The notes below the pieces were generated by a model that was not told where the DNA came from, did no database searches, and saw only the letters and a program-made list of their open reading frames with translations. Source: a virus (lineage: Duplodnaviria; Heunggongvirae; Uroviricota; Caudoviricetes). From it: a stretch of 39,466 nt of DNA. Below are positions 867 through 39,466 of this stretch, piece after piece. A program made the translations under genes and the position numbers. The stretch is from IMG/VR virus record IMGVR_UViG_2531839252_000006, one strand, 5' to 3'. Position 1 is the stretch's first letter. Every line of letters starts with the position of its first letter.

Positions 867-3599
867 TTAATTTGCAAGCTTATTTTCCAGTTCTTCAATC
901 CTCTTTATAATATTTTTCTGACGTATACCTAATGCAGCAATCATTAGATACTGTAATTCATCATTTCTGAATGCATAGCGTTCTCCTGCTTCATGCGTAA
1001 TAGTTATAGCCTCACGAACAAGGTTACCTTCATCATCATAAACAGCTGGATCTGTATCTGTATATGCATCCCATCTGTCATAGCAGATCGCTCCGTATTT
1101 AAATGGATCAAGTCCATTCTCTCTGAATATTTCCATTGCCCGTTGCACCGTAAGTCCGGCATGAAGTCTGGCATCAGCTCCCTTATTTTTTACACTATCA
1201 AGCCATTGATAAAAACCAATTTCATCAACAAGAGCTAACCCAACCGCCTGCTCTTTATCGGAAAGAGTTCTGACTTCCGTTTTCTCTGTTGCATCAGATG
1301 TATTTATAGTTGCAGTCCCTGCGTAGACCTGAGAAAAGCGGTTAACGGACCTTCCAAGTGATACCTGGTTATCAGTTGTTGGCCTTAATGTCGTCGTCGC
1401 CCATGTCGATGTAGTATCTTTAGTCGCAGAAAATACTGTTACATTCCCCTGCTTAAGTCTGACGACACCTCCATCTGTAGAGGCAAGTATCAACTCACCA
1501 GCCGCAGATGGACAATCAGCAGCATGGATATCAATATAAGCACCACCCGCAGTATTCCCATCTTTAGAACGGAACTGCATACCTCGAAAGTTTGAGTCGA
1601 ATACTGCTTTCGTACTTACCCATGAATTATTGTCATGTCCGTAATCTGTATCAAACAGGTTAAGGTTATTTCCATAATTCAACTCGAGGGATTTGGTATA
1701 CTCTCCAATGGCTTCGTCAAATATCGCAATAGTAAATGAACCGTGCTCACGGTTAAAGGCGATATCAGTTCCAGCATAATATTGATGCGCGGTTCCGGTA
1801 TACGGATCGGATTCTGCACCATGCACTGGATGGTTGCCAAGAATATCAGACAGGTTTGCTATTCCAAACAGATGCTTATTTCTGCGAGTATAATCACCTG
1901 ATTTATATGTTGCGCCTGAATCCCATTCACCACTTGTCGCTGCAAGCGATGTTTTTAACCAATAAGACCTGTTTGTCGGAAGATTTCCCTTGTTATCACC
2001 AGTAACAATACTTACCCAATTTTTACCACGATGGCTTACAACATCCCCTGCGCTTTTCCATACATCCATAGCACCACAGACAAGTTCATCACCTCTTATT
2101 GCCAGCCCTTCAGGCTCAAAGCTAACCGGAACTCCGATTTTAGAGTCAGAACCATTTAACTGAGTCTCTGTATAAAGTGATGCGGCAAGTGATACAGGAA
2201 ATGAACGTATTAGCGTACCACCCATATCATAAATCTGTACTGTCCTTACGCATCTTGCAGGAACGCCACCCCAAATTGTGTAAATATATCTGCTATCTGA
2301 TGTAATACCCTGAAGTGTTGCACCATACTGACCTTTACCACGGACAAGTGGAACAGGACCATTAATCGGTCTAACTTTCATTGGGTTAGAAGAAGATTCC
2401 ACTTCTTTGCGATCATATACGTATAAAAAGCGGCCAGTCCCAGCGTTTGATGTCGCAATTAATATGACATATCGCCCATCATTAGATACACAAATACTTG
2501 CCCGCTGCGCAAGGTTAATCAGATTATTATCACCCGGCTCACCAAATACTCGGTAATGAGTTATATCTTCAGCAGATGTTGATGCCCCTTTCCATTTTGT
2601 CTTTGAATACCCCTTCCCTCCTAGAGAGGAACCAGTCTCAGCAATTGTTGTTGTAAACAGATATAGTTCACCGTTCTCTATTGTGGCAGAAAGATCTGAA
2701 CCGTGACCAAGAGGCAATGGCTCTGTAAATGTCACAACATAAAGAGTTGAACCATCGCTTGTATAGTGCCACTCACTGATCCTTGTGAGGGTGTCCGTTC
2801 CCCAGTTAGAACCTCCAACCTGTTGAGTGATAAAAACCTTCTCAATACCTTCATGCCTTACACAAGCTATTCCCTGCAATGCATTTTGTGCATTCGCATA
2901 TATAGTTGGCGCATTGATATCATCACCAAAATTCAGGGTCGCAAGTTTTCTTTGTCCAATGGAGAAACTTTGCATCGGCGGATTAACAGAAATGCGAACA
3001 CCATTACTGATTAGAACACCATCACCGGAGAAGCGTGAAATATCTATTTTCGATGCATCAACTATAAACTCACCAGAAGGCACATGAACCAAACCACTAT
3101 TTCCTGCGCTAGATGCGGCGTCAAGAAAAGCCTGTGTTGAATCTCTATTCGCAGAGTCATCCGCCCCCCACCCGCGAACGTCTTTATCATCCCGCCATCG
3201 TGCAATCTGTAATTCAGGGTATTTTTTAGCACCATCAGGATCTTCTAATTGCTGCCGTAACTGATCCGGGTCATACTTCAGCACATTCGGAAAATAGAAC
3301 TGCTGCGTACCATAAGCATCGTACACAGCCATAGAGTGTCCTTTCACAGTAACGAATTTGGCAATCTGTCCGTTATATACAGGATATCCAGCAGCATTGA
3401 TAACGATTGGTTGCGAAACAGGAACGTGAGAACCTTCTTCATTCTCTACATAAACCTGAATCTGGTTTTCAGGATTTACAGGGTCAGTGTCAATTTTACC
3501 GATATAAATTTTGCCATTAGCTACGGCTTTAAAAGAACGAGCCATAGTGAAGAGTTGCGAAGGCATCCCAATTACAACATTTGGAGTTATATCAGGCAT
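867..3599 (-). CDS. Tailspike protein: P22 gp9-type head-binding N-terminal domain joined to a different receptor-binding domain and a C-terminal intramolecular-chaperone-like region; candidate endosialidase.
   Basis: N-terminal about 110 aa ([59 protein letters not shown] ... NVLKYDPDQ) match the remembered P22/Sf6/HK620 tailspike head-binding domain. Asp-box-like motifs ([16 protein letters not shown]) sit in the middle. The C-terminus ([10 protein letters not shown] ... [13 protein letters not shown]) resembles peptidase S74 chaperone domains. The long ORF extends to 3752, but the start was chosen at the ATG at 3599 with AGGA 8 nt upstream; ATG 3608 is an alternative. Confidence 0.8.
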
Positions 3600-3933
3600 A
3601 TTAGTCATCCTGTTTGAAAATTTAGATATTGAAGAAAACGGAATGACTGCAGACAAAGATGCAATTGTTTTGAAAAATAATCTTCTATTCACTTTAAAAC
3701 TATGCAACATGAACAAAACAATTATTTTACAACAAACAAGAATCTTGATCAACAGACATATGCTTTATGCGTTTAATGCGTCATTTAAAAATAACAAGTA
3801 CTACTTTTATTCCTATCGTCCATGATTTTCATTTTCAAATATTATTAAATAACAATTCCTATTTATAATATCTGTCATTTAATTTGCTCCAGATACAAGG
3901 AATCGCCGCAGCATGGCTACGGTGAATTTTGGG

Positions 3934-3962
3934 CATAAAAAAACCCAGCCGAAGCTGGGTCG
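3934..3962 (-). terminator. Rho-independent terminator downstream of ant.
   Basis: Stem acccagc / gctgggt with loop cgaa, followed on the minus strand by a T-run (plus-strand A-run 3936-3943). Confidence 0.6.
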
Positions 3963-3978
3963 TTGCGTTGGTTATCTG

Positions 3979-4881
3979 TCAGTAGTTATGTACTGAAGGA
4001 GGCAATTCTTTATTCTTAAGTCTCATCCATGCGGAAAGATTCGTTGGTCCGTCTGGCTCATTGATATCAACATCTCGTGTGTGATTGATTAAAACGTCTC
4101 TCGCCATTCCGATAACATACGAGAATTCATGACCGTAGTCGTAGCATCTGCCGGAATAGTTCGATTGAATTTGTTTTAGCGCCGGATACAGTTCGCGGAA
4201 TAATGCCTGTGAACGGTTGGCATAATCCCATAACCATACAAGGCTGTTTGCTTCTTTTGCAGAAAGCTCGTTTGCTTTCTTCTCTTGTTTGCCAATAAAC
4301 TCGCCTTCAAGCACTACCCTGTGGATGTACTCTACTGCTTGCGGTATCTGAGATGCATCAAGCTCTTCAATACTTTCCACGTTGAAACGCTGATGAATCA
4401 TTGCATAAGCTTCTGGGTACATTAGATGCTTTTTGCTGACTAGCATATTTACAGCATCACGAAGCGGAGTCCTGTCATCAACAGATGTTTTCTTACGTGC
4501 ATTTTCTTCCTTTCCCTTCGTCCAGTAGTCATGCAGCACGCTAAAGCATTCCTCCTGGTACTGAATCAGTTTATCACGGATGTCAGCACGAACTTTCTCA
4601 GGGTTGATGCTGAACAGCCATCCATTTAACTTCTTCAAAGGAAGGCAGAGTAGCTTACGAAGCTTCCCATCAGCGGCAACCATGTCCATATGAACACAGT
4701 TGAATTTGCTAATCTGCTTCATGAGTTTTGTTTGCTGCGTTGACCAGCTCATTCCAAGGTTTTCAACGATTGGCTTCATCGCAACATATGCAACTCCGGC
4801 AGCCATGGCGGTGATAATTTGCTGACCGTTGAATGGTACGTAAGAGGTGTTCACTGCTTCTAAAATTGCTATACTATTCAT
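3979..4881 (-). CDS. ant: Antirepressor Ant (immI region), 300 aa.
   Basis: Translation from [21 protein letters not shown] gives 300 aa, the length of P22 Ant, with a GGAG 10 nt upstream. Its position downstream of arc matches P22 immI. Confidence 0.85.
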
Positions 4882-6396: not shown

Positions 6397-6420
6397 CGAT
6401 TGAATCCAATTTCCCATACG

Positions 6421-8247
6421 TTACTGCTGTGTTGCCTCAGTAGCAAACAGCGGTCTGATGGCATTCGCAGCGTTATTTATCGCTCTTTCATAGGCTGGTG
6501 TTCCTGCTTTGGTGTTTGCCAAACGAAGAAGCATATTTCTTGCTGCTTTGGACTCATACAAGCGCATCATTGCACCAAAACCAGCCTCAAGCCCCATTGA
6601 TACGCCAAGGGTCGCAGTTGCGCCAATCGTCCTTATCCTGTTGGCTTGCGATTGCCCCGTCTGAGTTACTACATTTGCGGTGTCTGACCTTGCTGTTTGC
6701 TGTAGAACTTCATGAAGAGCATCAAGCTCTTTCATGTGCTTTCCAGAAAAAATAGTGTTGTAAATTTCACCGCCTGACTGAGATTTCAGCTTATTAACTT
6801 CAGTGATGAACTTGGCTGGAGAGTCCCCGGCCTTTTCCGCTATTTTGCTGACGTAAGCTGCACGCATAGCATCTTTCCCCTTATCATCCAGTGCGCTCCA
6901 GATTCGTTTCACGTCAGATGGTTTTCTGCTTAATACAACGGTATTTATAAGTTCAGGACTGGCTTCGCTGCTTGCCTTGTTGAGCTTGTTGGCAATGTTT
7001 TTATTAAGCACCTTATTATAAACGTTTGCATAATCGGAATTTGCTTTAAGGTATTTTGCTGCGTCTGATGCACCGAGGTTTTTAGCAACTGCGTTACGAA
7101 GGTCTTTTGACATTGCATTCTCTACCATATTGGTAGCTGCTTTTGCCTGGTTGGGGAAGACCATAGCATCTCCCTGAACATTAGATCTAAATGCTGTTCT
7201 GTGCTGACGCAAGAGATCAAACGTAACATCCAAATCAGTTGCAGGGTTTGCTAATTCTTCACGTAGGTTACGCAAGGATGTAAGCAGGCTTTGATTGGCA
7301 GACGTCCCAAGCCGTTCCTGTCTTGCGATCGCTGTATTCAGAGCATTCATGGTATTTGTGGTATCAACTGCGGCATTACCCATTTTATTGGTGACGTCAT
7401 TGATAACAGCGCCAGCGGCATCCTTCCGCCCCCTTAACGTGGTGGTAAGAGATTTCACCACATCATCAGGGTTGTACTCACCAAAACGGTCAAAATAATT
7501 GCTTACCAGCTTACTACGCGTTGCATATTGCTCCGCTCGCTTTGAGCCTGTCCCGAGCAAAGCCCCCTCAGCATCCTGAGTAAGTCCGCGAGTGAAAGCA
7601 TTTTTCGGCGGGATAACATCAGATGTCATTGGTGTCACGCCCATCGATTCTGATGTGGCAATTTTCTTCGCCACTTCTGGCGCAATATCACCTTTTATAG
7701 CCGTTATTCCACGCCCTATTCCCTTTGCTGCTGCGGAAAGAACACCCTGAGCGGCAAGGTTAACTCCGGCATTTTTAGCTGCATTTTGTGCGAAATCACC
7801 TTTCTGATTTGCGGCCTCTGCCAGTGATCCAATAGCCATACTTCCTGCCGTTCCAACTCCTGGAACTAAATACCCGCCAATTGTTTCTCCAGCTTGAGCG
7901 TAGGAGTCTGTCGGTCTGTCTACTGGACGATAGACATCATCCAATACTTTTGGCCCACCAAGCCCCTGACTGATTGCATTAATCAGACTTGCGCCACCCT
8001 GCAATACGTCAAATGGTATGTTTACCAGACCACGACCAGCCTGTTCTGCAATTTGCCCTGCACTTTGACCACCAGTGAGCCAGTCAGTAGCTTTTCCTAC
8101 CAGAGATTGTTCTTCTGGCTGCGATTGGTTTTGGGTGGATTGATCACCAGAAGACAGCATCTGAGCAATGCGACGTGCTCCCTCAGTATCACCAGCAGCA
8201 TCAGCATTCCTTAACGCCGTCATCAATTGTTCACGACTATAAGCCAT
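6421..8247 (-). CDS. Ejection (injection) protein, P22 gp16-like, 608 aa.
   Basis: Size and position immediately downstream of the gp20-like gene match the P22 order 7-20-16; Ala/Gly-rich composition. Confidence 0.75.
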
Positions 8248-30809: not shown

Positions 30810-31460
30810 ATGAATACACAACTGATGGGTGAGCGTATTCGCGCTCGCAGAAAAGAACTCAAGATTAGGCAGGCTGCCCTTGGCAAGATGGTTGGCGTGT
30901 CTAATGTTGCTATTTCCCAATGGGAGCGTTCTGAAACTGAGCCCAATGGCGAAAACCTATTGGCCTTAGCCAAGGCTTTGCAGTGCTCCCCTGATTACTT
31001 GTTGAAAGGAGAAGATAGTCTTTCAAACATTGCCTATCACAGCAGGCATGATCCAAGAGGTTCGTATCCTCTAATTAGTTGGGTAAGCGCAGGATGTTGG
31101 ATGGAAGCTGTAGAGCCATATCATAAGCGTGCAATAGATAACTGGTACGATACAACCGTAGATTGTTCAGAAGATTCGTTTTGGCTGGACGTAAAGGGTG
31201 ATTCGATGACGGCTCCAGCCGGTCTTAGCATCCCGGAAGGGATGATAATACTAGTCGATCCTGAAGTAGAACCTCGTAATGGGAAGCTGGTAGTGGCAAA
31301 GCTCGAAGGAGAAAACGAGGCAACTTTCAAGAAGTTAGTTATTGATGCTGGCAGAAGGTTTCTAAAACCACTTAACCCACAATATCCGATGATTGAGATC
31401 AACGGGAACTGCAAAATCATCGGTGTAGTTGTCGATGCAAAAATAGCAAACCTTCCATAA
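30810..31460 (+). CDS. c2: Prophage repressor C2 (CI-type, LexA-like S24 autopeptidase fold), 216 aa.
   Basis: Translation MNTQLMGERIRARRKELKIRQAALGKMVGVSNVAISQWERSE ... GDSM ... matches remembered P22 C2; same length. Confidence 0.9.
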   Translation: MNTQLMGERIRARRKELKIRQAALGKMVGVSNVAISQWERSETEPNGENLLALAKALQCSPDYLLKGEDSLSNIAYHSRHDPRGSYPLISWVSAGCWMEAVEPYHKRAIDNWYDTTVDCSEDSFWLDVKGDSMTAPAGLSIPEGMIILVDPEVEPRNGKLVVAKLEGENEATFKKLVIDAGRRFLKPLNPQYPMIEINGNCKIIGVVVDAKIANLP

Positions 31461-31771: not shown

Positions 31772-32044
31772 ATGACAGTAGTCATTACATATCTGGCTGA
31801 CGATAACGCCAGAAATAGCCGCAGAGCACGCAGACAGGCTCAACGTGAACAGGCAATGCAAGAGCAGCGACTGGCGCGAAAGATTGCGCTAAAGCTCTCT
31901 GGTTGCGTCAGAGCAGATAAAGCAGCATCACTCGGAAGCCTTCGCTGTAAGGAAGAAGATGAACGCAGTGGAAGTATTTGCCTGCCAAACGTAGCTCTTT
32001 ACGCGGCAGGCTACAGGAAATCAAAACAACTGACGGCGAGGTAA
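31772..32044 (+). CDS. N: N-type transcription antiterminator, 90 aa.
   Basis: Arg-rich N-terminal motif (NARNSRRARRQAQREQ) and first gene downstream of PL/nutL; GGAGG 5 nt upstream. Confidence 0.7.
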   Translation: MTVVITYLADDNARNSRRARRQAQREQAMQEQRLARKIALKLSGCVRADKAASLGSLRCKEEDERSGSICLPNVALYAAGYRKSKQLTAR

Positions 32045-32715: not shown

Positions 32716-32916
32716 ATGACTACGACTATTGATAAAAATCAATGGTGTGGACAATTCAAGCGATGCAATGGATGCAAGCTGCAATCGGAATGCATGGTTA
32801 AGCCTGAAGAAATGTTTCCTGTAATGGAAGATGGGAAATATGTCGATAAATGGGCAATACGAACGACGGCAATGATTGCCAGAGAACTTGGTAAACAGAA
32901 TAACAAGGCTGCCTGA
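32716..32916 (+). CDS. ral: Ral-like restriction-alleviation protein, 66 aa.
   Basis: Length and sequence (MTTTIDKNQWCGQFKRCNGCKLQSECMVKPEEMF ...) resemble lambda Ral as remembered; position after N. Confidence 0.6.
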   Translation: MTTTIDKNQWCGQFKRCNGCKLQSECMVKPEEMFPVMEDGKYVDKWAIRTTAMIARELGKQNNKAA

Positions 32917-33677: not shown

Positions 33678-33814
33678 CCATTAATCACCAGATGCTTCGT
33701 GCTGCACAGAACAAAGCAGTAATAGCCAGATTTATTGGTGATTCAAAAATGTGGCTTGAAGCAAATAAAGCGATGAAATCAGCTATCAACCTTCCGTGGT
33801 ATCGCAGGAAATGA
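33662..33814 (+). CDS. kil: Kil-like host-killing protein, 50 aa; not in the ORF track.
   Basis: Hand translation MRNEIAINHQMLRAAQNKAVIARFIGDSKMWLEANKAMKSAINLPWYRRK resembles lambda Kil; GGAGG 5 nt upstream; overlaps the cIII end. Confidence 0.5.
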   Translation: MRNEIAINHQMLRAAQNKAVIARFIGDSKMWLEANKAMKSAINLPWYRRK

Positions 33815-33970
33815 GTTTTACAGATAACTGGTCAGACGAAGAATTCATTCGTCAGATGAAAGAATTAATCGGTAACGAAGGAGATATTCATGTCACTTGC
33901 AACCACAGTGAAGGAGAGCAAGTTACAGAGACGCATGTACACGCAGAAAGCTCTCTGGTATCGCCATAAT
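33812..33970 (+). CDS. Possible small protein, 52 aa, coupled to kil (ATGA overlap).
   Basis: Hand translation MSFTDNWSDEEFIRQMKELIGNEGDIHVTCNHSEGEQVTETHVHAESSLVSP. Confidence 0.3.
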
Positions 33971-34068
33971 GGTGACCGCGAAGGAATGCGGGTATGCCTT
34001 AATTTGTCCCGAGTCGAAGTATTAAATCAGCGTTATTTCCTTGGGCCGTGTCCATTCTGAGGTGAATT

Positions 34069-34776
34069 ATGGATTTGAACAAATTCGATGAGCCATTCAG
34101 CCCTGAAGATATCGAATGGCGAATACAGCAAAGCGGTAAAACACGCGATGGCAAGGTGTGGGCTATGGTGCTGGCTTATGTCACGAACCGGGCAATCATG
34201 AAACGCCTGGACGATGTTTGCGGCAAAGCAGGATGGCGCAATGAATACCGCGATATTCCCAACAACGGCGGAGTTGAATGCGGCATATCAATCAAGATTG
34301 ATTCCGAATGGGTAACCAAATGGGATGCTGCTGAAAACACGCAGGTAGAAGCCGTCAAAGGTGGTCGTTCAGGTGCAATGAAGCGTGCTGCCGTTCAGTG
34401 GGGAATCGGTCGGTATCTGTATAACCTTGAGGAAGGTTTCGCACAAACATCTCTCGATAAAAAGCAGGGGTGGCACAGGGCAAAACTGAAGGATGGAACA
34501 GGATTTTACTGGCTCCCTCCATCGCTGCCGGGATGGGCAATCCCAGCATCAGATAACAAACCATCACCAGAAAATACCAACCAGAAATCTCCATCGGTTG
34601 ACTGCGAACAAATCCTGAAAGACTTCAGCGATTATGCGTCAACAGAAACTGATAAGAAAAAACTCATCGAGCGTTATCAGCGTGACTGGCAATTAATGGC
34701 TGGCAACGAGGAGGCGCAGGCTAAATGCGTTCAGGTAATGAACATCAGAGTTAACGAACTAAAACAGGCGGCATAA
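34069..34776 (+). CDS. Single-strand annealing recombinase, Rad52/Rad22-like, 235 aa.
   Basis: Motif GAMKRAAVQWGIGRYLY resembles the Rad52-family signature; followed by ssb and an exonuclease. Confidence 0.6.
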   Translation: MDLNKFDEPFSPEDIEWRIQQSGKTRDGKVWAMVLAYVTNRAIMKRLDDVCGKAGWRNEYRDIPNNGGVECGISIKIDSEWVTKWDAAENTQVEAVKGGRSGAMKRAAVQWGIGRYLYNLEEGFAQTSLDKKQGWHRAKLKDGTGFYWLPPSLPGWAIPASDNKPSPENTNQKSPSVDCEQILKDFSDYASTETDKKKLIERYQRDWQLMAGNEEAQAKCVQVMNIRVNELKQAA

Positions 34777-35283
34777 ATGGCAAGCAGAGGCGTAAATAAG
34801 GTGATTATCCTTGGTCGGGTAGGACAAGCCCCGGAAGTTCGATACTCACCATCAGGAACAGCGTTAGCTAACCTGACAATAGCCACATCAGAACAATGGC
34901 GAGATAAAAATACTGGCGAGCAAAAGGAATTGACTGAATGGCATCGTGTTGCTGTATCCGGGAAACTGGCTGAGGTCGTGGGGCAGTATGTGAAAAAAGG
35001 TGATCAGATTTATTTCGAGGGAATGCTGAGAACCAGAAAGTGGAAAGACCAGTCAGGGCAAGACCGTTACACAACCGAGGTTCATGTCGGAATTAATGGC
35101 GTGATGCAAATGCTTGGCGGCATTGGCGACAGCAAACAACAAGCAGCCAGCAGGCAATCACAGAAGCCACAGCAGCAATCATCACCAGCACAACACAACG
35201 AACCTCCGATGGATTTTGACGACGATATACCCTTTGCACCAGTAACTCTCCCCTTCCCTCGTCACGCTATTCACGCAATTTAA
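34777..35283 (+). CDS. ssb: Single-stranded DNA-binding protein (OB fold), with a 15-aa extension after the DDDIPF motif.
   Basis: N-terminus [41 protein letters not shown] is a typical SSB; Gln-rich linker; DDDIPF is followed by [15 protein letters not shown] before the stop. Confidence 0.85.
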
Positions 35284-35291
35284 GGACTTAC

Positions 35292-35840
35292 ATGAATCAC
35301 TTAATGGTTGACCTTGAAACAATGGGCAACGGGCCATACTCGCCAGTTATTTCTATTGGGGCGGTATTCTTTGACCCGAATACCGGAGAAACAGGAGAAG
35401 AGTTCTCGGTAAATATCTCGCTTGAGTCATCAATGCGATATCGGGCGCGTCCTGACGCTTCAACGATTTTATGGTGGATGGAACAGAGTGAAGAAGCCAG
35501 AAAATCGCTAACCAGCAACACTCAAGAGCTTTCAACGGCTCTTTCATGGTTATCTGAATTCATCATAAAGAACGCCAACCACAAATTCGTTCAGGTTTGG
35601 GGGAATGGAGCATCATTTGACTGCGTTATTCTCCGCAACAGTTATTCGCTGACAGGGCAGCCAGTTCCGTGGCAGTGGTGGAATGACCGCGACGTAAGAA
35701 CAATCGTCGAACTTGGGAAGGTAATAGGATTCGACCCTAAGCGAGATATGCCATTCAAAGGAACTCGCCACAACGCGCTTGATGATGCCATTCACCAAGC
35801 CAAATACGTTTCAGCGATCTGGAAAAAGTTAGCTAAATAA
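35292..35840 (+). CDS. DEDDh-type 3'-5' exonuclease, 182 aa.
   Basis: Motifs VDLETMG (D-x-E), WGNGASFDCVIL and HNALDDA (H-x4-D) are present. Confidence 0.75.
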   Translation: MNHLMVDLETMGNGPYSPVISIGAVFFDPNTGETGEEFSVNISLESSMRYRARPDASTILWWMEQSEEARKSLTSNTQELSTALSWLSEFIIKNANHKFVQVWGNGASFDCVILRNSYSLTGQPVPWQWWNDRDVRTIVELGKVIGFDPKRDMPFKGTRHNALDDAIHQAKYVSAIWKKLAK

Positions 35841-35856
35841 TCAACAGGAGAAAACC

Positions 35857-36150
35857 ATGCCAGCGCCTCTGTATGGTGCGGACGACGCGCGCCGCTGTTC
35901 CGGCAATTCCGTATCGGAGGTGCTGGATAAATTCAGAAAAAACTACGACCGGATAATGTCGCTACCGCAGGAAACGAAAGAGGAAAAGGAATTTCGCCAC
36001 TGTATATGGCTTGCAGAGAAAGAAGAACGCGAGCGAATTTACCAGACATCAATCCAACCATTCCGCAAAGCCACATATACCCACTTCCCTGAAATTGACC
36101 CGCGCCTGCGTAATTACCGCTCACGTTATGGCGCTATCAGTAATGACTGA
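35857..36150 (+). CDS. Hypothetical protein, 97 aa.
   Basis: Intact ORF in the PL operon. Confidence 0.45.
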
Positions 36151-36160
36151 GGAATTTACC

Positions 36161-36325
36161 ATGAGAGGACTTGCATACAATCCCGGCATTCTTCCGGCAG
36201 AAATGATTATTCGCCAACGCGTAAAGCCAATGCCATCGAGAGAGGAATTGCTTAAGAGAAATTCTTTTCCATCAGTAAATCAAAACAAATATCTGAATGC
36301 GATGTGGCGGAGTGGGAAGAAATGA
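36161..36325 (+). CDS. Possible small protein, 54 aa.
   Basis: GAGG 8 nt upstream of the ATG at 36161; overlaps the next gene start. Confidence 0.3.
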
Positions 36326-37227
36326 AACAAATGTCACTAATTGAGATGGATGGATTTCTGAAAGGTAAATGCATCCCACGAGATTTAAAGGTTAACGAAA
36401 CAAACGCTGAATATCTTGTCCGTAAGTTCGGTGAACTTGAATCAAAACTCAACGAGCAGCGTGAGTATTACGAGGGCGTTATCTCGGATGGGAGTAAGCG
36501 TATTGCTGAACTGGAGAAAAGCGAAGAGCAACTCATCAACGAGCGTGACCATGCTGAGTATGCTTTAGCTGATATGTATTTTGCAGCAACCGGGAACAGG
36601 CCGGAATGGAGTAACTGTTTCAGTTTTTCAGATGCAGTAGATGCCGTAGTTGACAGAATTGCTGATTTAGAAGTTAAACAGCCATCGCCAGTAGTACCGG
36701 AAGAAAAACCAATGCCGAACCCTCTTAGCATGTATGCGGTTGATGCGGTTGCAGCTATTGCAGAGGTGAGAGGCTGGAACGCCTGTCGTGCCGCCATGCT
36801 TCATGGTGCCAAACCTGTAAGCCAAACTTACAACTTGCCACAAACGGAGTTTGAACAGGTTGCTGACCTCTACAAAATGCAATTTGATGACGGTCGCACT
36901 TGTGCCTTTCACACTGATGCGCAAAAGGCTGCTCAATGGCTTCAGACGTGCGACGGAAACAGAGTTCAGGAATACGTGAAGCTGGAACGGTTGCAGAATG
37001 CGCTGTCTGGCAACTATCCGGTAACTCCGGATGGTTGGATAAGCTGTAGTGAGCGAATGCCAGATGATGGTCAGCACGTAATTATTTTATGTGATGGCGC
37101 ATTCGTTCTTTATGCGCAATATCGAGACGGTGAGTTTTTTGATGTTGTCCGCAATGGTGAGGAGTTCTTCGAAACGCAGAGCCGCAATGTAACCCACTGG
37201 ATGCCGCTACCAGAACCGCCGCTCTGA
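36322..37227 (+). CDS. DUF551-domain phage protein.
   Basis: C-terminal [18 protein letters not shown] ... [10 protein letters not shown] is the DUF551 hallmark; start chosen at the ATG at 36322 rather than the GTG at 36304. Confidence 0.55.
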
Positions 37228-37323
37228 TAGCGAATCTTATACATATCTTTTACATCAACAATATATTGTTAATTTCCAATCAATGTTACGTTGTCATCTC
37301 ACTCATGCTTTGGAGGTAGTGAT

Positions 37324-37503
37324 ATGTCTTGTCCAAAATGCGGTTCTGGAAATATTGCAAAAGAAAAAACAAGGCGTGGATGGTCTGGAGATTATGTGTG
37401 CAGTGATTGCGGATACAACAACTCTAAAGACGCATTTGGAATGCGCGGTAAAAACGAGTTTAGTAAAAATAATAAAGAACGCGGAAGCAACGAAAAAAGC
37501 TAA
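37324..37503 (+). CDS. Small zinc-ribbon protein, 60 aa.
   Basis: CPKCGSG ... CSDCGY motifs; GGAGG 7 nt upstream. Confidence 0.5.
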   Translation: MSCPKCGSGNIAKEKTRRGWSGDYVCSDCGYNNSKDAFGMRGKNEFSKNNKERGSNEKS

Positions 37504-37569
37504 ATTATTTATTCATATATGAAAACAATGTAACCAATATTCGAATTGAAGAACTGAAAGAACACTAAG

Positions 37570-38069: not shown

Positions 38070-38300
38070 ATGACAATCAATATTCAGCCGATTCTAATAA
38101 ACCGCGAGCGTGTTCAGGAGATGCTTGGTGGTATCTCCAGAACTACTTTTTACCGGAAGCGTAAACAGTGGGAGCAATCAGGGACACCATTCCCTCGGGA
38201 AGTGGAAGAAATCCACCCACCGAAAGGCGGCGCCCTCTTTCGCTACAAGGAAGTTATTCAGTTTTGCAAAGATAAAGGATTGATTTCCGAACACTCTTGA
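38070..38300 (+). CDS. xis: AlpA-family DNA-binding protein; putative excisionase.
   Basis: Small helix-turn-helix protein (LINRERVQEMLGGISRTTFYRKRK) adjacent to the integrase; convergent with it and overlapping by 43 bp. Confidence 0.55.
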   Translation: MTINIQPILINRERVQEMLGGISRTTFYRKRKQWEQSGTPFPREVEEIHPPKGGALFRYKEVIQFCKDKGLISEHS

Positions 38301-39466
38301 ATTTTCTTAGCCCATAATTCTGCTGCGTCCTGCTGCTCGGGGATGTAGTCATACTGGTCATAAACAGCCAGCATCCCCGTGAGTTTATGCCCGAGAATTT
38401 TCTCCGAAACATGAGGTGCTACTCCAAGTTCAGCCATTTTTGTTTTGCACGTTCTGCGCAGATCGTGCAATGACCAGTGCTCGCCCCCCATAACATCTTC
38501 TACCTGTTCTGCAATAGAAATTAGGGTGCTGGCAGACATTGGGCGATTTTCCTGTAACTTAGCCGGAGGAAATACGATTGACAGATCAGGGTATAGATCA
38601 AATACCTGCTGCAAATAATCTGCTGCGAGTTTTGAAATACCGCGAACAAATCGCTTACGCGTTTTTGAGTTCTCTTTCGGTATAGTCCATTCTCTAGACT
38701 TCAGATCAAAATCAGTCTTCTTAGCCAACCGCAATTCAACACCACGACAACCAGTTAACGCAACAATTCGAATAAACATTTTGTTTTGCCACGACATTTT
38801 CGTTTTGTCGATGGCATTCCAGAATGCGCCTATCTCAACATCGTTAAGAAAACGTTCGCCATTATTAGGTCTACTGCCGATATCATTAATCTCAAGAAGC
38901 ATCAGTGCATTTGATGTTATGCGTTTTCTGCGTAACGCATAGCGGATCACTTGCTTCATCTTCACCAGTACATTTCCCGCCTGTACGGGTGACCCACCTT
39001 TTGTTATGCGAATGAATATTTGCTCCCACTCTACAGGACTCATTTCATCTGCAATCAGCTTACCGTAATTGTCGGTGATGTGAAGTTTCAGCATCCGCTT
39101 CCAGTATTCGTACTTCACCATCTCTTTTACTGAAGGAGTATCAAACCACTCGTCAACTAGGGTACTGATGCTTGGGGAACTTGATGCAATATCTTTGGCT
39201 TTCTTCCTTTGCATGGCTGGGTCTTTACCCTTCTCCAACCACCCTTTACACTCTTCCAATGCATCGCGAGCTTCCTTAAGCGACATCTTCCCGTACGTTC
39301 CGAGCTTTAACCTGGCGGGTTTTCCATTGAAACGATAGCGGTATTGAAAGGTGATAAGTCCCTTCGGGCTGATCCTGACAGAAAGTCCGCCTCCGTCAGC
39401 TATCTCCTCAGGTCCCTCATATGCTTTTCCGGATATACGTCGCAGCTTTGTATCGTTGAGTGCCAT
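38258..39466 (-). CDS. int: Tyrosine integrase (P4-type, arm-binding N-terminus); its start coincides with the window end, so the true start and the att site may lie beyond it.
   Basis: C-terminal catalytic motifs HDLRRTCKTKMAELG ... LGHKLTGMLAVYDQYDY; N-terminus GGGLSVRISPKGLITFQYRYRFNGKPARLKLGTYG is typical of P4-like integrases. Confidence 0.9.
   Translation of the reverse strand: MALNDTKLRRISGKAYEGPEEIADGGGLSVRISPKGLITFQYRYRFNGKPARLKLGTYGKMSLKEARDALEECKGWLEKGKDPAMQRKKAKDIASSSPSISTLVDEWFDTPSVKEMVKYEYWKRMLKLHITDNYGKLIADEMSPVEWEQIFIRITKGGSPVQAGNVLVKMKQVIRYALRRKRITSNALMLLEINDIGSRPNNGERFLNDVEIGAFWNAIDKTKMSWQNKMFIRIVALTGCRGVELRLAKKTDFDLKSREWTIPKENSKTRKRFVRGISKLAADYLQQVFDLYPDLSIVFPPAKLQENRPMSASTLISIAEQVEDVMGGEHWSLHDLRRTCKTKMAELGVAPHVSEKILGHKLTGMLAVYDQYDYIPEQQDAAELWAKKIQECSEINPLSLQN

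Follow-up and report, generated by a model that had tools for sequence, protein, structure and literature searches.

A P22-type recombination module with a Rad52-type annealing protein, SSB, and DEDDh exonuclease in a prophage

Introduction

[quoted passage not shown] The question arises at positions 34069-35840 of a 39,466-nucleotide stretch from a Caudoviricetes record (IMGVR_UViG_2531839252_000006), the whole of which is called the window here. The initial annotation, made from the sequence alone, read this cluster as a three-gene module standing where lambda has gam-bet-exo and P22 has erf-abc. Pfam and the open reading frame (ORF) list bear out the three families and their coordinates, but a fourth gene of the module, abc2 (35857-36150), had been overlooked.

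Organization of the module

The features of the region are as follows.

33796..34060, + strand: two overlapping small ORFs, 57 aa (33796-33969) and 56 aa (33890-34060) (ORF list)
34069-34776, + strand: SSAP (Rad52/Rad22-family annealing protein), 235 aa (ORF, PF04098)
34069..34518, + strand: SSAP residues 1-150, predicted Rad52/Rad22-type annealing core (PF04098, AlphaFold, Foldseek)
34519..34596, + strand: SSAP residues 151-176, end of Trp/Pro motif, then variable low-complexity linker
34597..34776, + strand: SSAP residues 177-235 and stop codon, Erf-type three-helix bundle (blastp, AlphaFold)
34777-35283, + strand: SSB, 168 aa (ORF, PF00436)
34777..35235, + strand: SSB residues 1-153, OB-fold core, Gln/Pro-rich linker, and canonical acidic tip (PF00436)
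35236..35283, + strand: SSB residues 154-168 and stop codon, 15-residue extension (comparison with relatives)
35292-35840, + strand: DEDDh 3'-5' exonuclease of the Rv2179c/DexA family, 182 aa (ORF, PF16473)
35857-36150, + strand: abc2, anti-RecBCD protein 2, the fourth gene of the module (PF11043)

The small ORFs are followed in order by the genes for SSAP, SSB, and DEDDh exonuclease and by abc2. The SSAP, SSB, and exonuclease genes are tightly packed: the stop codon TAA of the SSAP gene directly joins the ATG of ssb (gcaTAAATGgca), the gap between ssb and the exonuclease gene (exo) is 8 nt with an AAGGA ribosome-binding site, and that between exo and abc2 is 16 nt with an AGGAG site. Judging from the Pfam E-values, the family matches of the three proteins are far above chance level. 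Genes for an anti-RecBCD protein, SSB, nuclease, and SAP thus lie side by side at 34069-36150, and N, ral, cIII, and kil precede them.

The two small ORFs hold the position of arf before erf in P22, and their homologs are annotated in mEpX2 (gp35/gp34), HK75, and Sf6, while neither ORF had a match in Pfam or NCBIfam. They are not detectably Arf, since the only match to P22 Arf was a weak one (SDEEFI, E = 0.09); Phage_Arf proper (PF17585) is found at this position in divergent relatives. An N-like antiterminator is encoded at 31772, and a crude consensus scan of the + strand from about 33850 to 37560 found no promoter- or terminator-like site, for which reason we infer that the genes of the module would be co-transcribed after induction or infection. 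The repressor of the prophage is 93% identical to P22 C2, and a P4-type integrase is encoded on the opposite strand. A search of the whole window for lambda Exo, Bet, and Gam, the Erf N-domain, Abc1, and HNH found none of these.

Relationship to known recombination modules

At the nucleotide level, the module is 97% identical to that of phage mEpX2 and 89% identical to that of Salmonella phage epsilon34. The order SSAP, SSB, DEDDh exonuclease, and Abc2 is identical in mEpX2, mEp235, epsilon34, and g341c, as is the SSB tail, so that the module is essentially no different from theirs, while the surrounding prophage differs in its P22-type repressor and P4-type integrase. A 2025 survey of lambdoid recombination modules named this class, comprising anti-RecBCD, SSB, nuclease, and SAP, the 'ES18 type', and judged the 'epsilon34 DnaQ' nuclease to be a legitimate module member (PMC12315714). 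With a class already catalogued and a 97% identical relative, the locus is not the different recombineering toolkit that had been supposed; it is a known P22-type prophage recombination module. The exact three-gene block was present in 137 of 5426 complete E. coli genomes, and the family of Rad52-type SSAP with SSB and Abc2 is common in Enterobacterales (5594 homologs found).

The module shares its operon position after cIII-kil with arf-erf-abc1-abc2 of P22. The abc2 product matches PF11043 at E = 2.5e-62 and is 92% identical to P22 Abc2 over 97 of 97 residues, and residues 157-235 of the SSAP are 63% identical to residues 134-205 of P22 Erf (E = 3e-29). Because Abc2 is retained and the SSAP carries the Erf C-terminal domain, the module is a variant of P22 erf-abc, and not the alternative to it that was originally proposed. 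The two differ in the annealing core, which is ERF (PF04404) in P22 but Rad52/Rad22 (PF04098) here, and in abc1, which is absent here, with SSB and the DEDDh exonuclease in its place. The hkaM-sak4-ssb-abc2 module of HK620 likewise has an annealase followed by its cognate SSB and a P22-type Abc2, but it has the RecA-like Sak4 as annealase, a non-canonical DUF669 protein as SSB, and no nuclease. The HK620 SSB stimulates annealing and recombineering via its C-terminus (PMC5928155). Lambda Red (gam-bet-exo) also lies in the pL operon and also combines a Rad52-superfamily annealase with a way to neutralize RecBCD; however, in lambda, Gam blocks RecBCD and the phage supplies its own 5'-3' Exo, whereas the module described here presumably uses Abc2 to reprogram RecBCD. 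Unlike lambda Red, the present module encodes an SSB, and its sole phage nuclease is predicted to be 3'-5'.

The annealing protein

The 235-aa protein matches PF04098 (Rad52_Rad22) at E = 5e-26 (91.9 bits; curated cut-off, 20.3) over residues 4-136 and profile positions 7-153 of 153, and PF04098 is present in all 120 SSAP homologs listed. This was its sole Pfam match at E<=0.01, with neither PF04404 (ERF) nor RecT/Redbeta found, while P22 Erf, used as a control, matched PF04404 at 4.6e-46; blastp detected no similarity between the N-terminal domains of the SSAP and P22 Erf. The profile comparison initially suggested for this protein, Rad52/Sak versus Erf/RecT, is thus decided in favor of Rad52. 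The PHROG label 'Erf-like' on this SSAP is a mere family name.

The AlphaFold model of the SSAP has a mean pLDDT of 82, and about 90 over most of the core. When this model was compared with the PDB by Foldseek, the top 16 matches were all Mgm101 or human RAD52 (probability 0.92-1.00, best E = 8.7e-4), with TM-scores that were low (0.21-0.35) because the query was the entire two-domain model. The SSAP shares the Rad52-type annealing fold with Sak of the lactococcal phage ul36, human RAD52, and yeast Mgm101, with only about 15% identity to the solved RAD52 and Mgm101 structures; Sak and Sak3 have been described as Rad52-like SSAPs (PMC5928155). Sequence searches of the PDB, with the single sequence or a profile, returned no Rad52; a PRP40 WW-domain-like match at residues 129-164 (E about 0.1) was insignificant. 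Compared with Sak, RAD52, and Mgm101, the enterobacterial SSAP has an extra Trp/Pro motif, a linker, and the Erf-type three-helix domain. The motif, which closes the core (W148, P151, L153-P154, W156, and P159), occupies invariant columns in an alignment of 31 sequences, in which the linker differs in both length and sequence; the pLDDT falls below 50 at residues 162-176.

Modeled alone, from an alignment that excluded P22 Erf, the C-terminal domain forms three helices with a pLDDT of 90. It showed no similarity to lambda Bet by hhalign (probability 0.3), its profile found no family in the PDB or Pfam, and its model matched only generic three-helix bundles in the PDB (E>1), without a significant fold match. 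So generic a fold does not point to a particular binding partner; the domain is presumed to be a partner-binding one. Every P22-type C-terminal domain examined came with Abc2, while seven lineages with divergent C-terminal domains and a readable downstream gene have other proteins of ~100 aa at the Abc2 position (the contig of an eighth divergent lineage, L197, ends short of that gene). These ~100-aa proteins match no Pfam family, and blastp does not relate them to Abc2 or Abc1.

On sequence grounds, the SSAP is a chimera of a Rad52-type annealing core and the P22 Erf C-terminal domain. It would be expected to form a ring oligomer that binds single-stranded DNA (ssDNA) and anneals strands, although a literature search found no experimental work on this SSAP subfamily.

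The SSB and its C-terminal extension

The 168-aa protein matches PF00436 (SSB) at E = 7.8e-36, and bacterial SSB structures of the E. coli type match it at E = 1.6e-58 (7f2n) and E = 5.9e-57 (1eqq), with alignments that stop at residue 153 (IPF). The DDDIPF motif (residues 148-153) is therefore internal rather than C-terminal, and the usual terminal Phe is buried by 15 residues, encoded by a nearly invariant 45-nt junction sequence. The extension was found on the SSB in 94 of 94 distinct stretches free of HNH. Where an HNH gene is present (30 stretches), the extension ends the HNH protein instead and the SSB always ends at IPF; in three exceptions to the former, the HNH ORF is interrupted or the tail is missing. 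The extension is retained, with amino-acid changes, in relatives whose SSAPs are 65-70% identical. The masked tip may make the phage SSB behave unlike a canonical SSB, a point against the model given below.

The exonuclease and its slot

The 182-aa protein matches PF16473 (Rv2179c-like 3'-5' exonuclease) at E = 6.4e-73 over profile positions 1-177 of 177, and its DEDDh residues D7, E9, D109, H160, and D165 align with those of T4 DexA and EcD; its 3'-5' polarity is predicted from this family. It is not a constant partner of the SSAP in close relatives, where near-identical SSAP-SSB pairs occur with any of four arrangements. Of the 79 SSAP-seeded viral loci, all of which have a near-identical SSAP, 37 have nothing in the slot between ssb and abc2, 16 have an HNH gene there, 23 have the exonuclease, and 3 have both, so that the exonuclease is missing from 53 of the 79, while Abc2 lies downstream in all of them. 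HK75-type phages, with 27 members (PMC12315714), have SSAP-SSB-Abc2 only and are viable, and comparison with HK75 shows clean boundaries of the exonuclease cassette. The exonuclease is an optional cassette and not a fixed partner of the SSAP.

These counts bear directly on the reading of SSAP, SSB, and the 3'-5' exonuclease as a self-contained recombinase of three genes that would replace the erf-abc or gam-bet-exo solutions, with the exonuclease dedicated to resection as lambda Exo is for Bet. The close packing of the three genes is in keeping with it, as are the occupation of the slot by the exonuclease in 80 of 80 exo-seeded close relatives and in a Phytobacter relative whose SSAP is only 70% identical, and the ExoX-like DEDDh gene adjoining the SSAP gene in L197. 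We nevertheless think it highly improbable: abc2 follows at 16 nt and is constant where the exonuclease is not, the HK75-type phages do without the nuclease, the SSAP bears the C-terminal domain of Erf, whose own P22 module has no exonuclease, and 3'-5' degradation would give 5' tails. Because this polarity is wrong for 3' tails and many otherwise identical modules lack the exonuclease, we take it not to be the resection partner.

The nearest characterized relatives of the exonuclease function in DNA scavenging, intron homing, and anti-T4 defense, not in annealing recombination. A second alternative is a DexA/EcD-like accessory unrelated to annealing, inserted in a permissive slot of the pL operon, that would scavenge nucleotides or degrade competitor DNA, such as 5hmC-modified T-even DNA ('HREX' defense). 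DexA and EcD, which act on DNA (PMC12153337), have PF16473 and the DEDDh catalytic residues in common with the exonuclease. The nearest solved structure is that of T4 DexA (8kel/8ken, E about 2e-13), a protein of 227 aa with extra loops compared with the 182 aa here; of W152 and D169, by which DexA recognizes 5hmC, W152 aligns with W130. An EcD-like protein, recovered via the published cloning primers of EcD, shares 37% identity with the exonuclease across the full length (E = 1e-38) and is a homolog, not the same protein; EcD was reported to digest T4 DNA, to spare unmodified dsDNA, and to protect cells from T4 (PMC12153337). The PF16473 family occurs in 1854 records from widely differing phages, and EcD-like genes lie in early operons of P2-like prophages without an SSAP; the optional cassette with its clean boundaries would also fit.

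Set against this, the identity to EcD is just 37%, and the equivalent of DexA D169 is ambiguous (F147, adjoining D148). PADLOC returned generic weak DEDDh matches only, NCBIfam gave nothing specific, and the evidence on EcD comes from plasmid expression. The crude scan showed no promoter signal for exo itself, which is flanked by gaps of 8 and 16 nt, and its expression in the lysogen, where defense pays, is therefore doubtful. DEDDh nucleases are moreover associated with recombination-module proteins in three independent cases, namely the lineage with 70% SSAP identity, L197, and mEp460, in which the exonuclease domain type is fused to a RecE-like N-terminal region. We regard an accessory unrelated to annealing as unlikely, although 3'-5' ssDNA exonucleases usually inhibit recombination (PMC12315714), which counts against the recombination role that these associations favor.

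A model for the module

The genes described here are probably the core of a recombination module that is of the P22 type, depends on Abc2, and belongs to the early-left (pL) operon of a lambdoid prophage whose immunity is P22-like. Abc2, known as a RecBCD hijacker (PMC5928155), would bind RecC and convert host RecBCD, which otherwise destroys linear phage DNA, into a resection engine that exposes ssDNA; this reprogramming is established for P22 Abc2 and is expected here because of the 92% identity, so that RecBCD reprogrammed by Abc2 is the most likely source of resection. The phage SSB, whose translation would be coupled to that of the SSAP, would coat the exposed ssDNA, and the Rad52-type core of the SSAP would anneal complementary strands. 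The Erf-type three-helix domain, on its flexible linker, would contact a partner, for which the Abc2-RecBCD complex and the SSB tail are candidates. The DEDDh exonuclease would be a facultative add-on whose most likely task in recombination is to trim 3' ends or flaps or to process DNA ends in some other way.

A further proposal is a joint one, and we consider it rather doubtful as a whole: that the Erf-type C-terminal domain is a portable docking module to Abc2-reprogrammed RecBCD, and that the 15-residue SSB extension is functional. If the former were true, the domain would couple any annealing core fused to it (ERF-type in P22, Rad52-type here) to RecBCD, in a phage analog of RecBCD-mediated RecA loading. 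If the latter were true, the phage SSB would be insulated from the host SSB interactome, and HNH insertion would toggle the extension off.

Significance

The locus is a routine and recognizable prophage recombination module, and its residual value is practical. There are natural variants of it that are alike except for the nuclease slot and an exposed versus masked SSB tip, and they provide a ready-made experiment on what annealing recombination owes to the 3'-5' exonuclease and to the C-terminus of the SSB.

Organization of the recombination module

The three genes that the initial annotation had claimed at 34069-35840 were recovered as ORFs at exactly these coordinates, and their families were confirmed by Pfam; abc2, which follows directly, had been overlooked.

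Genes of the recombination module and of the region upstream
30810-31460: repressor, 93% identical to P22 C2 (upstream)
31772-32044: N-type antiterminator (upstream)
32716-32916: ral (upstream, as are a DUF2528 protein, cIII and kil)
34069-34776, + strand: single-strand annealing protein (SSAP), 235 aa; ORF, Pfam Rad52_Rad22
34777-35283, + strand: ssb, 168 aa; ORF, Pfam SSB
35292-35840, + strand: DEDDh 3'-5' exonuclease, 182 aa; ORF, Pfam Rv2179c-like family
35857-36150, next gene after the exonuclease gene: abc2, Pfam Anti-RecBCD_p2

The ssb start codon directly abuts the SSAP stop, and the gaps between ssb and the exonuclease gene (8 nt) and between the latter and abc2 (16 nt) each hold a ribosome-binding site. 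Abc2 (Anti-RecBCD_p2, E = 2.5e-62) is 92% identical to P22 Abc2 across all 97 residues. Because of the genes lying upstream, and because a consensus scan of the + strand from ~33850 to 37560 returned no promoter- or terminator-like sites, the module looks like a single stretch of the pL operon. Lambda Exo, Bet and Gam, the Erf N-domain, Abc1 and an HNH endonuclease gene were not found in the window.

Past abc2, a 307-aa mosaic protein (36304-37227), Ea22-like in its N-terminal segment and ending in a DUF551 domain, gives piecewise matches to 16 different PHROGs, typical of the shuffled ea region. A 70-aa zinc-ribbon protein (37291-37503) weakly matches Lar restriction alleviation (E = 6e-4) and, together with ral, would make two restriction-alleviation candidates in the pL operon. 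The integrase (38258-39466, - strand; Arm-DNA-bind_3 and Phage_integrase domains) is convergent with this operon, its start codon falling on the last base of the window, whereas mEpX2 and HK75 have an integrase of another type that runs in the same direction as pL; thus, prophages with different integration modules share the recombination module.

The annealing protein

Whether the SSAP is of the Rad52 or the Erf type, a question raised in the initial annotation, was settled by profile search: PF04098 was the sole Pfam match of its N-terminal 150 residues (Rad52_Rad22, E = 5e-26, the whole 153-position profile spanned), while the positive control, P22 Erf, matched PF04404 (4.6e-46). The 16 best PDB matches of its AlphaFold model (mean pLDDT 82) were Mgm101 and human RAD52 (probability 0.92-1.00), with TM-scores kept low by the use of the full two-domain model as query. 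Residues 162-176 form a disordered linker, and residues 177-235 a three-helix bundle (pLDDT 90 in a separate model), which is 63% identical to the P22 Erf C-terminal domain (E = 3e-29). The bundle matched no Pfam family, bore no resemblance to the C-terminal domain of lambda Redbeta, and gave no fold match that reached significance. By sequence, the SSAP is a chimera of a Rad52-type N-terminal part and the P22 Erf C-terminal domain.

Past the Rad52 core lies a Trp/Pro-rich motif, GWHRAKLKDGTGFYWLPPSLPGWAIP (34465-34545, residues 133-159), in which W148, P151, L153, P154, W156, A157 and P159 are unchanged across 31 homologues; the AlphaFold model shows short strands here, and the motif's WW-domain-like matches to PRP40 are weak (E about 0.1).

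SSB and its C-terminal extension

The SSB (E = 7.8e-36) can be aligned with its bacterial counterparts as far as ...MDFDDDIPF (residue 153), where the PDB alignment ends and where canonical SSBs, Sf6 SSB among them, terminate; residues 154-168 (35236-35280) form a 15-residue extension past the DDDIPF tip. Among 124 distinct ssb-abc2 stretches, this extension was present in all 94 without an HNH gene, while the SSB ended at IPF in all 30 with one. The HNH protein itself (e.g., Sf6 gp26, 3601-4080 of locus L003) bears this same tail in 27 of those 30, its ORF being interrupted or the tail missing in the remaining three. This pattern looks as if a mobile HNH gene had inserted in frame, or been precisely lost, at a conserved junction. 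The 45-nt tail segment is identical at the DNA level in 132 of 161 copies. Of its variable sites, 4 are synonymous and 5 non-synonymous, which does not point to protein-level selection. Relatives with 65-70% SSAP identity retain an extension of 15 residues in which several amino acids differ; in others the SSB ends canonically.

Elsewhere in the protein, E. coli SSB Phe60, which contacts ssDNA, is replaced by Ser, as in Sf6 SSB, since residues 57-62 (34945-34962) read RVAVSG against bacterial RVVLFG in the structure alignment.

An optional exonuclease cassette

We fetched 159 related viral loci, 79 of which had been retrieved with a near-identical SSAP as seed, and assigned their genes by tblastn. 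Abc2 was found in 79/79 of the seeded loci, and the space between ssb and abc2 was empty in 37, held an HNH gene in 16, the exonuclease in 23 and both in 3. Among named phages, HK75 exemplifies the empty state, Sf6 the HNH state, and mEpX2 and epsilon34 the exonuclease state. Comparison with HK75 gave clean boundaries for the exonuclease gene, which is an optional cassette; with this space empty or otherwise filled beside a near-identical SSAP, the enzyme cannot be obligatory for this SSAP.

The exonuclease matches the Rv2179c-like family over its full length (E = 6.4e-73), a family with 1854 phage records of many kinds. Its nearest solved relative is T4 DexA (8kel/8ken), and D7, E9, D109, H160 and D165 align with the DEDDh residues of DexA and of its E. 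coli homologue EcD, which, according to the DexA paper, digests 5hmC-containing T4 DNA, spares unmodified dsDNA and guards cells against T4 (PMC12153337). EcD-like genes were found via the published cloning primers; the recovered protein (189 aa, beginning MIDTET, alanine at 78) agrees with that report. At 37% identity to it, the window enzyme is an EcD homologue and not the same protein. The EcD-like gene belongs to an early operon of a P2-like prophage, and this operon has no annealase. In locus L190 (EcD, 6401-6970) it neighbours genes for a ParE-like toxin, a Dam-type methyltransferase, a DUF4406 protein and a Cox-like regulator; between the published reverse primer and the recovered loci there is an indel of one base (GAAAC versus GAAC).

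A DexA/EcD-like role is nevertheless unlikely for the window enzyme, since DEDDh nucleases are linked to recombination modules in three separate cases, which argues against a purely accessory role. The exonuclease occupies the same position in a Phytobacter relative whose SSAP is just 70% identical. In L197 (SSAP identity 60%), a different DEDDh exonuclease (3327-3998; 223 aa, RNase_T with an ExoX-like C-terminal motif) stops 3 nt ahead of the SSAP start. In phage mEp460_ev081, an 823-aa protein (L206, 1578-4049) ends in a DEDDh domain that shares 58% identity with the window exonuclease, and the 640 residues at its N-terminus match PHROGs of the RecE/exonuclease VIII type; it looks like a RecE-like protein whose 5'-3' nuclease domain was swapped for a 3'-5' one. 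Because of these three links, we favor optional DNA-end or 3'-flap processing in recombination as its role.

Farther upstream of the ExoX-like gene, L197 holds a gene for a GmrSD-type modification-dependent nuclease, and the mEp460 gene lies between dicB and xis-int with no annealase annotated nearby.

Divergent relatives

The SSB gene directly follows the SSAP gene in all six SSB-encoding divergent lineages (L205 has none, and the L197 contig ends just past the SSAP). Abc2 was not detectable in any lineage with a divergent SSAP C-terminal domain, L197 ending short of its position, which is elsewhere taken by different proteins of ~100 aa that fall into two or more families (30-36% identity inside a family) and lack any Pfam match.

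Proteins of ~100 aa in the Abc2 position
L193: 5158-5670
L195: 5200-5502
L198: 5821-6132
L199: 5208-5537
L202: 2283-2582
L203: 5203-5517
L205: 4726-5037

These may be unrecognised RecBCD modulators, and the distribution hints, in a small and phylogenetically non-independent sample, that C-terminal-domain subtype and downstream small protein co-vary.

Relation to the P22 system

P22 Abc2 is known to bind RecC and turn RecBCD into a resection activity (PMC5928155, citing Murphy 2000); at 92% identity, the window Abc2 would do the same. Judging from families and gene order, phage SSB would then coat the ssDNA and the Rad52-type ring would anneal complementary strands, to circularise the genome, to repair DNA or to allow recombination-dependent growth. 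The cognate SSB of HK620 acts through its C-terminus to stimulate the annealase (PMC5928155), and SSAP-SSB compatibility hinges on the last seven SSB residues (bioRxiv 10.1101/2020.04.14.041095); by analogy, SSB and SSAP would cooperate here.

The 3-kb block shares 97% identity with phages mEpX2 and mEp235 and 89% with Salmonella phages epsilon34 and g341c, in all of which the four genes are annotated. The three-gene block occurs in 137/5426 complete E. coli genomes (at least 80% of the query covered), where its products are annotated as a Rad52/Rad22 protein, an SSB and a 3'-5' exonuclease. A survey published in 2025, covering 325 lambdoid phages, describes an 'HK75 type' (anti-RecBCD, SSB and annealing protein; 27 phages) and an 'ES18 type' (the same with a nuclease; 25 phages), and names an 'epsilon34 DnaQ' among nucleases said usually to inhibit recombination; partner-domain shuffling lies outside its scope (PMC12315714). 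Our literature search found no experimental work on this SSAP subfamily.

With an Erf-type bundle and a 92% identical Abc2, the window prophage shares both elements with P22 and differs from it in the annealing core, which is of the Rad52 type. The protein families named in the initial annotation thus stand, but its 'different recombineering toolkit' does not: the module is best read as a variant of the P22 system, already known and annotated, whose natural variants in ssb-abc2 content and SSB tip are the sole feature meriting experiment.
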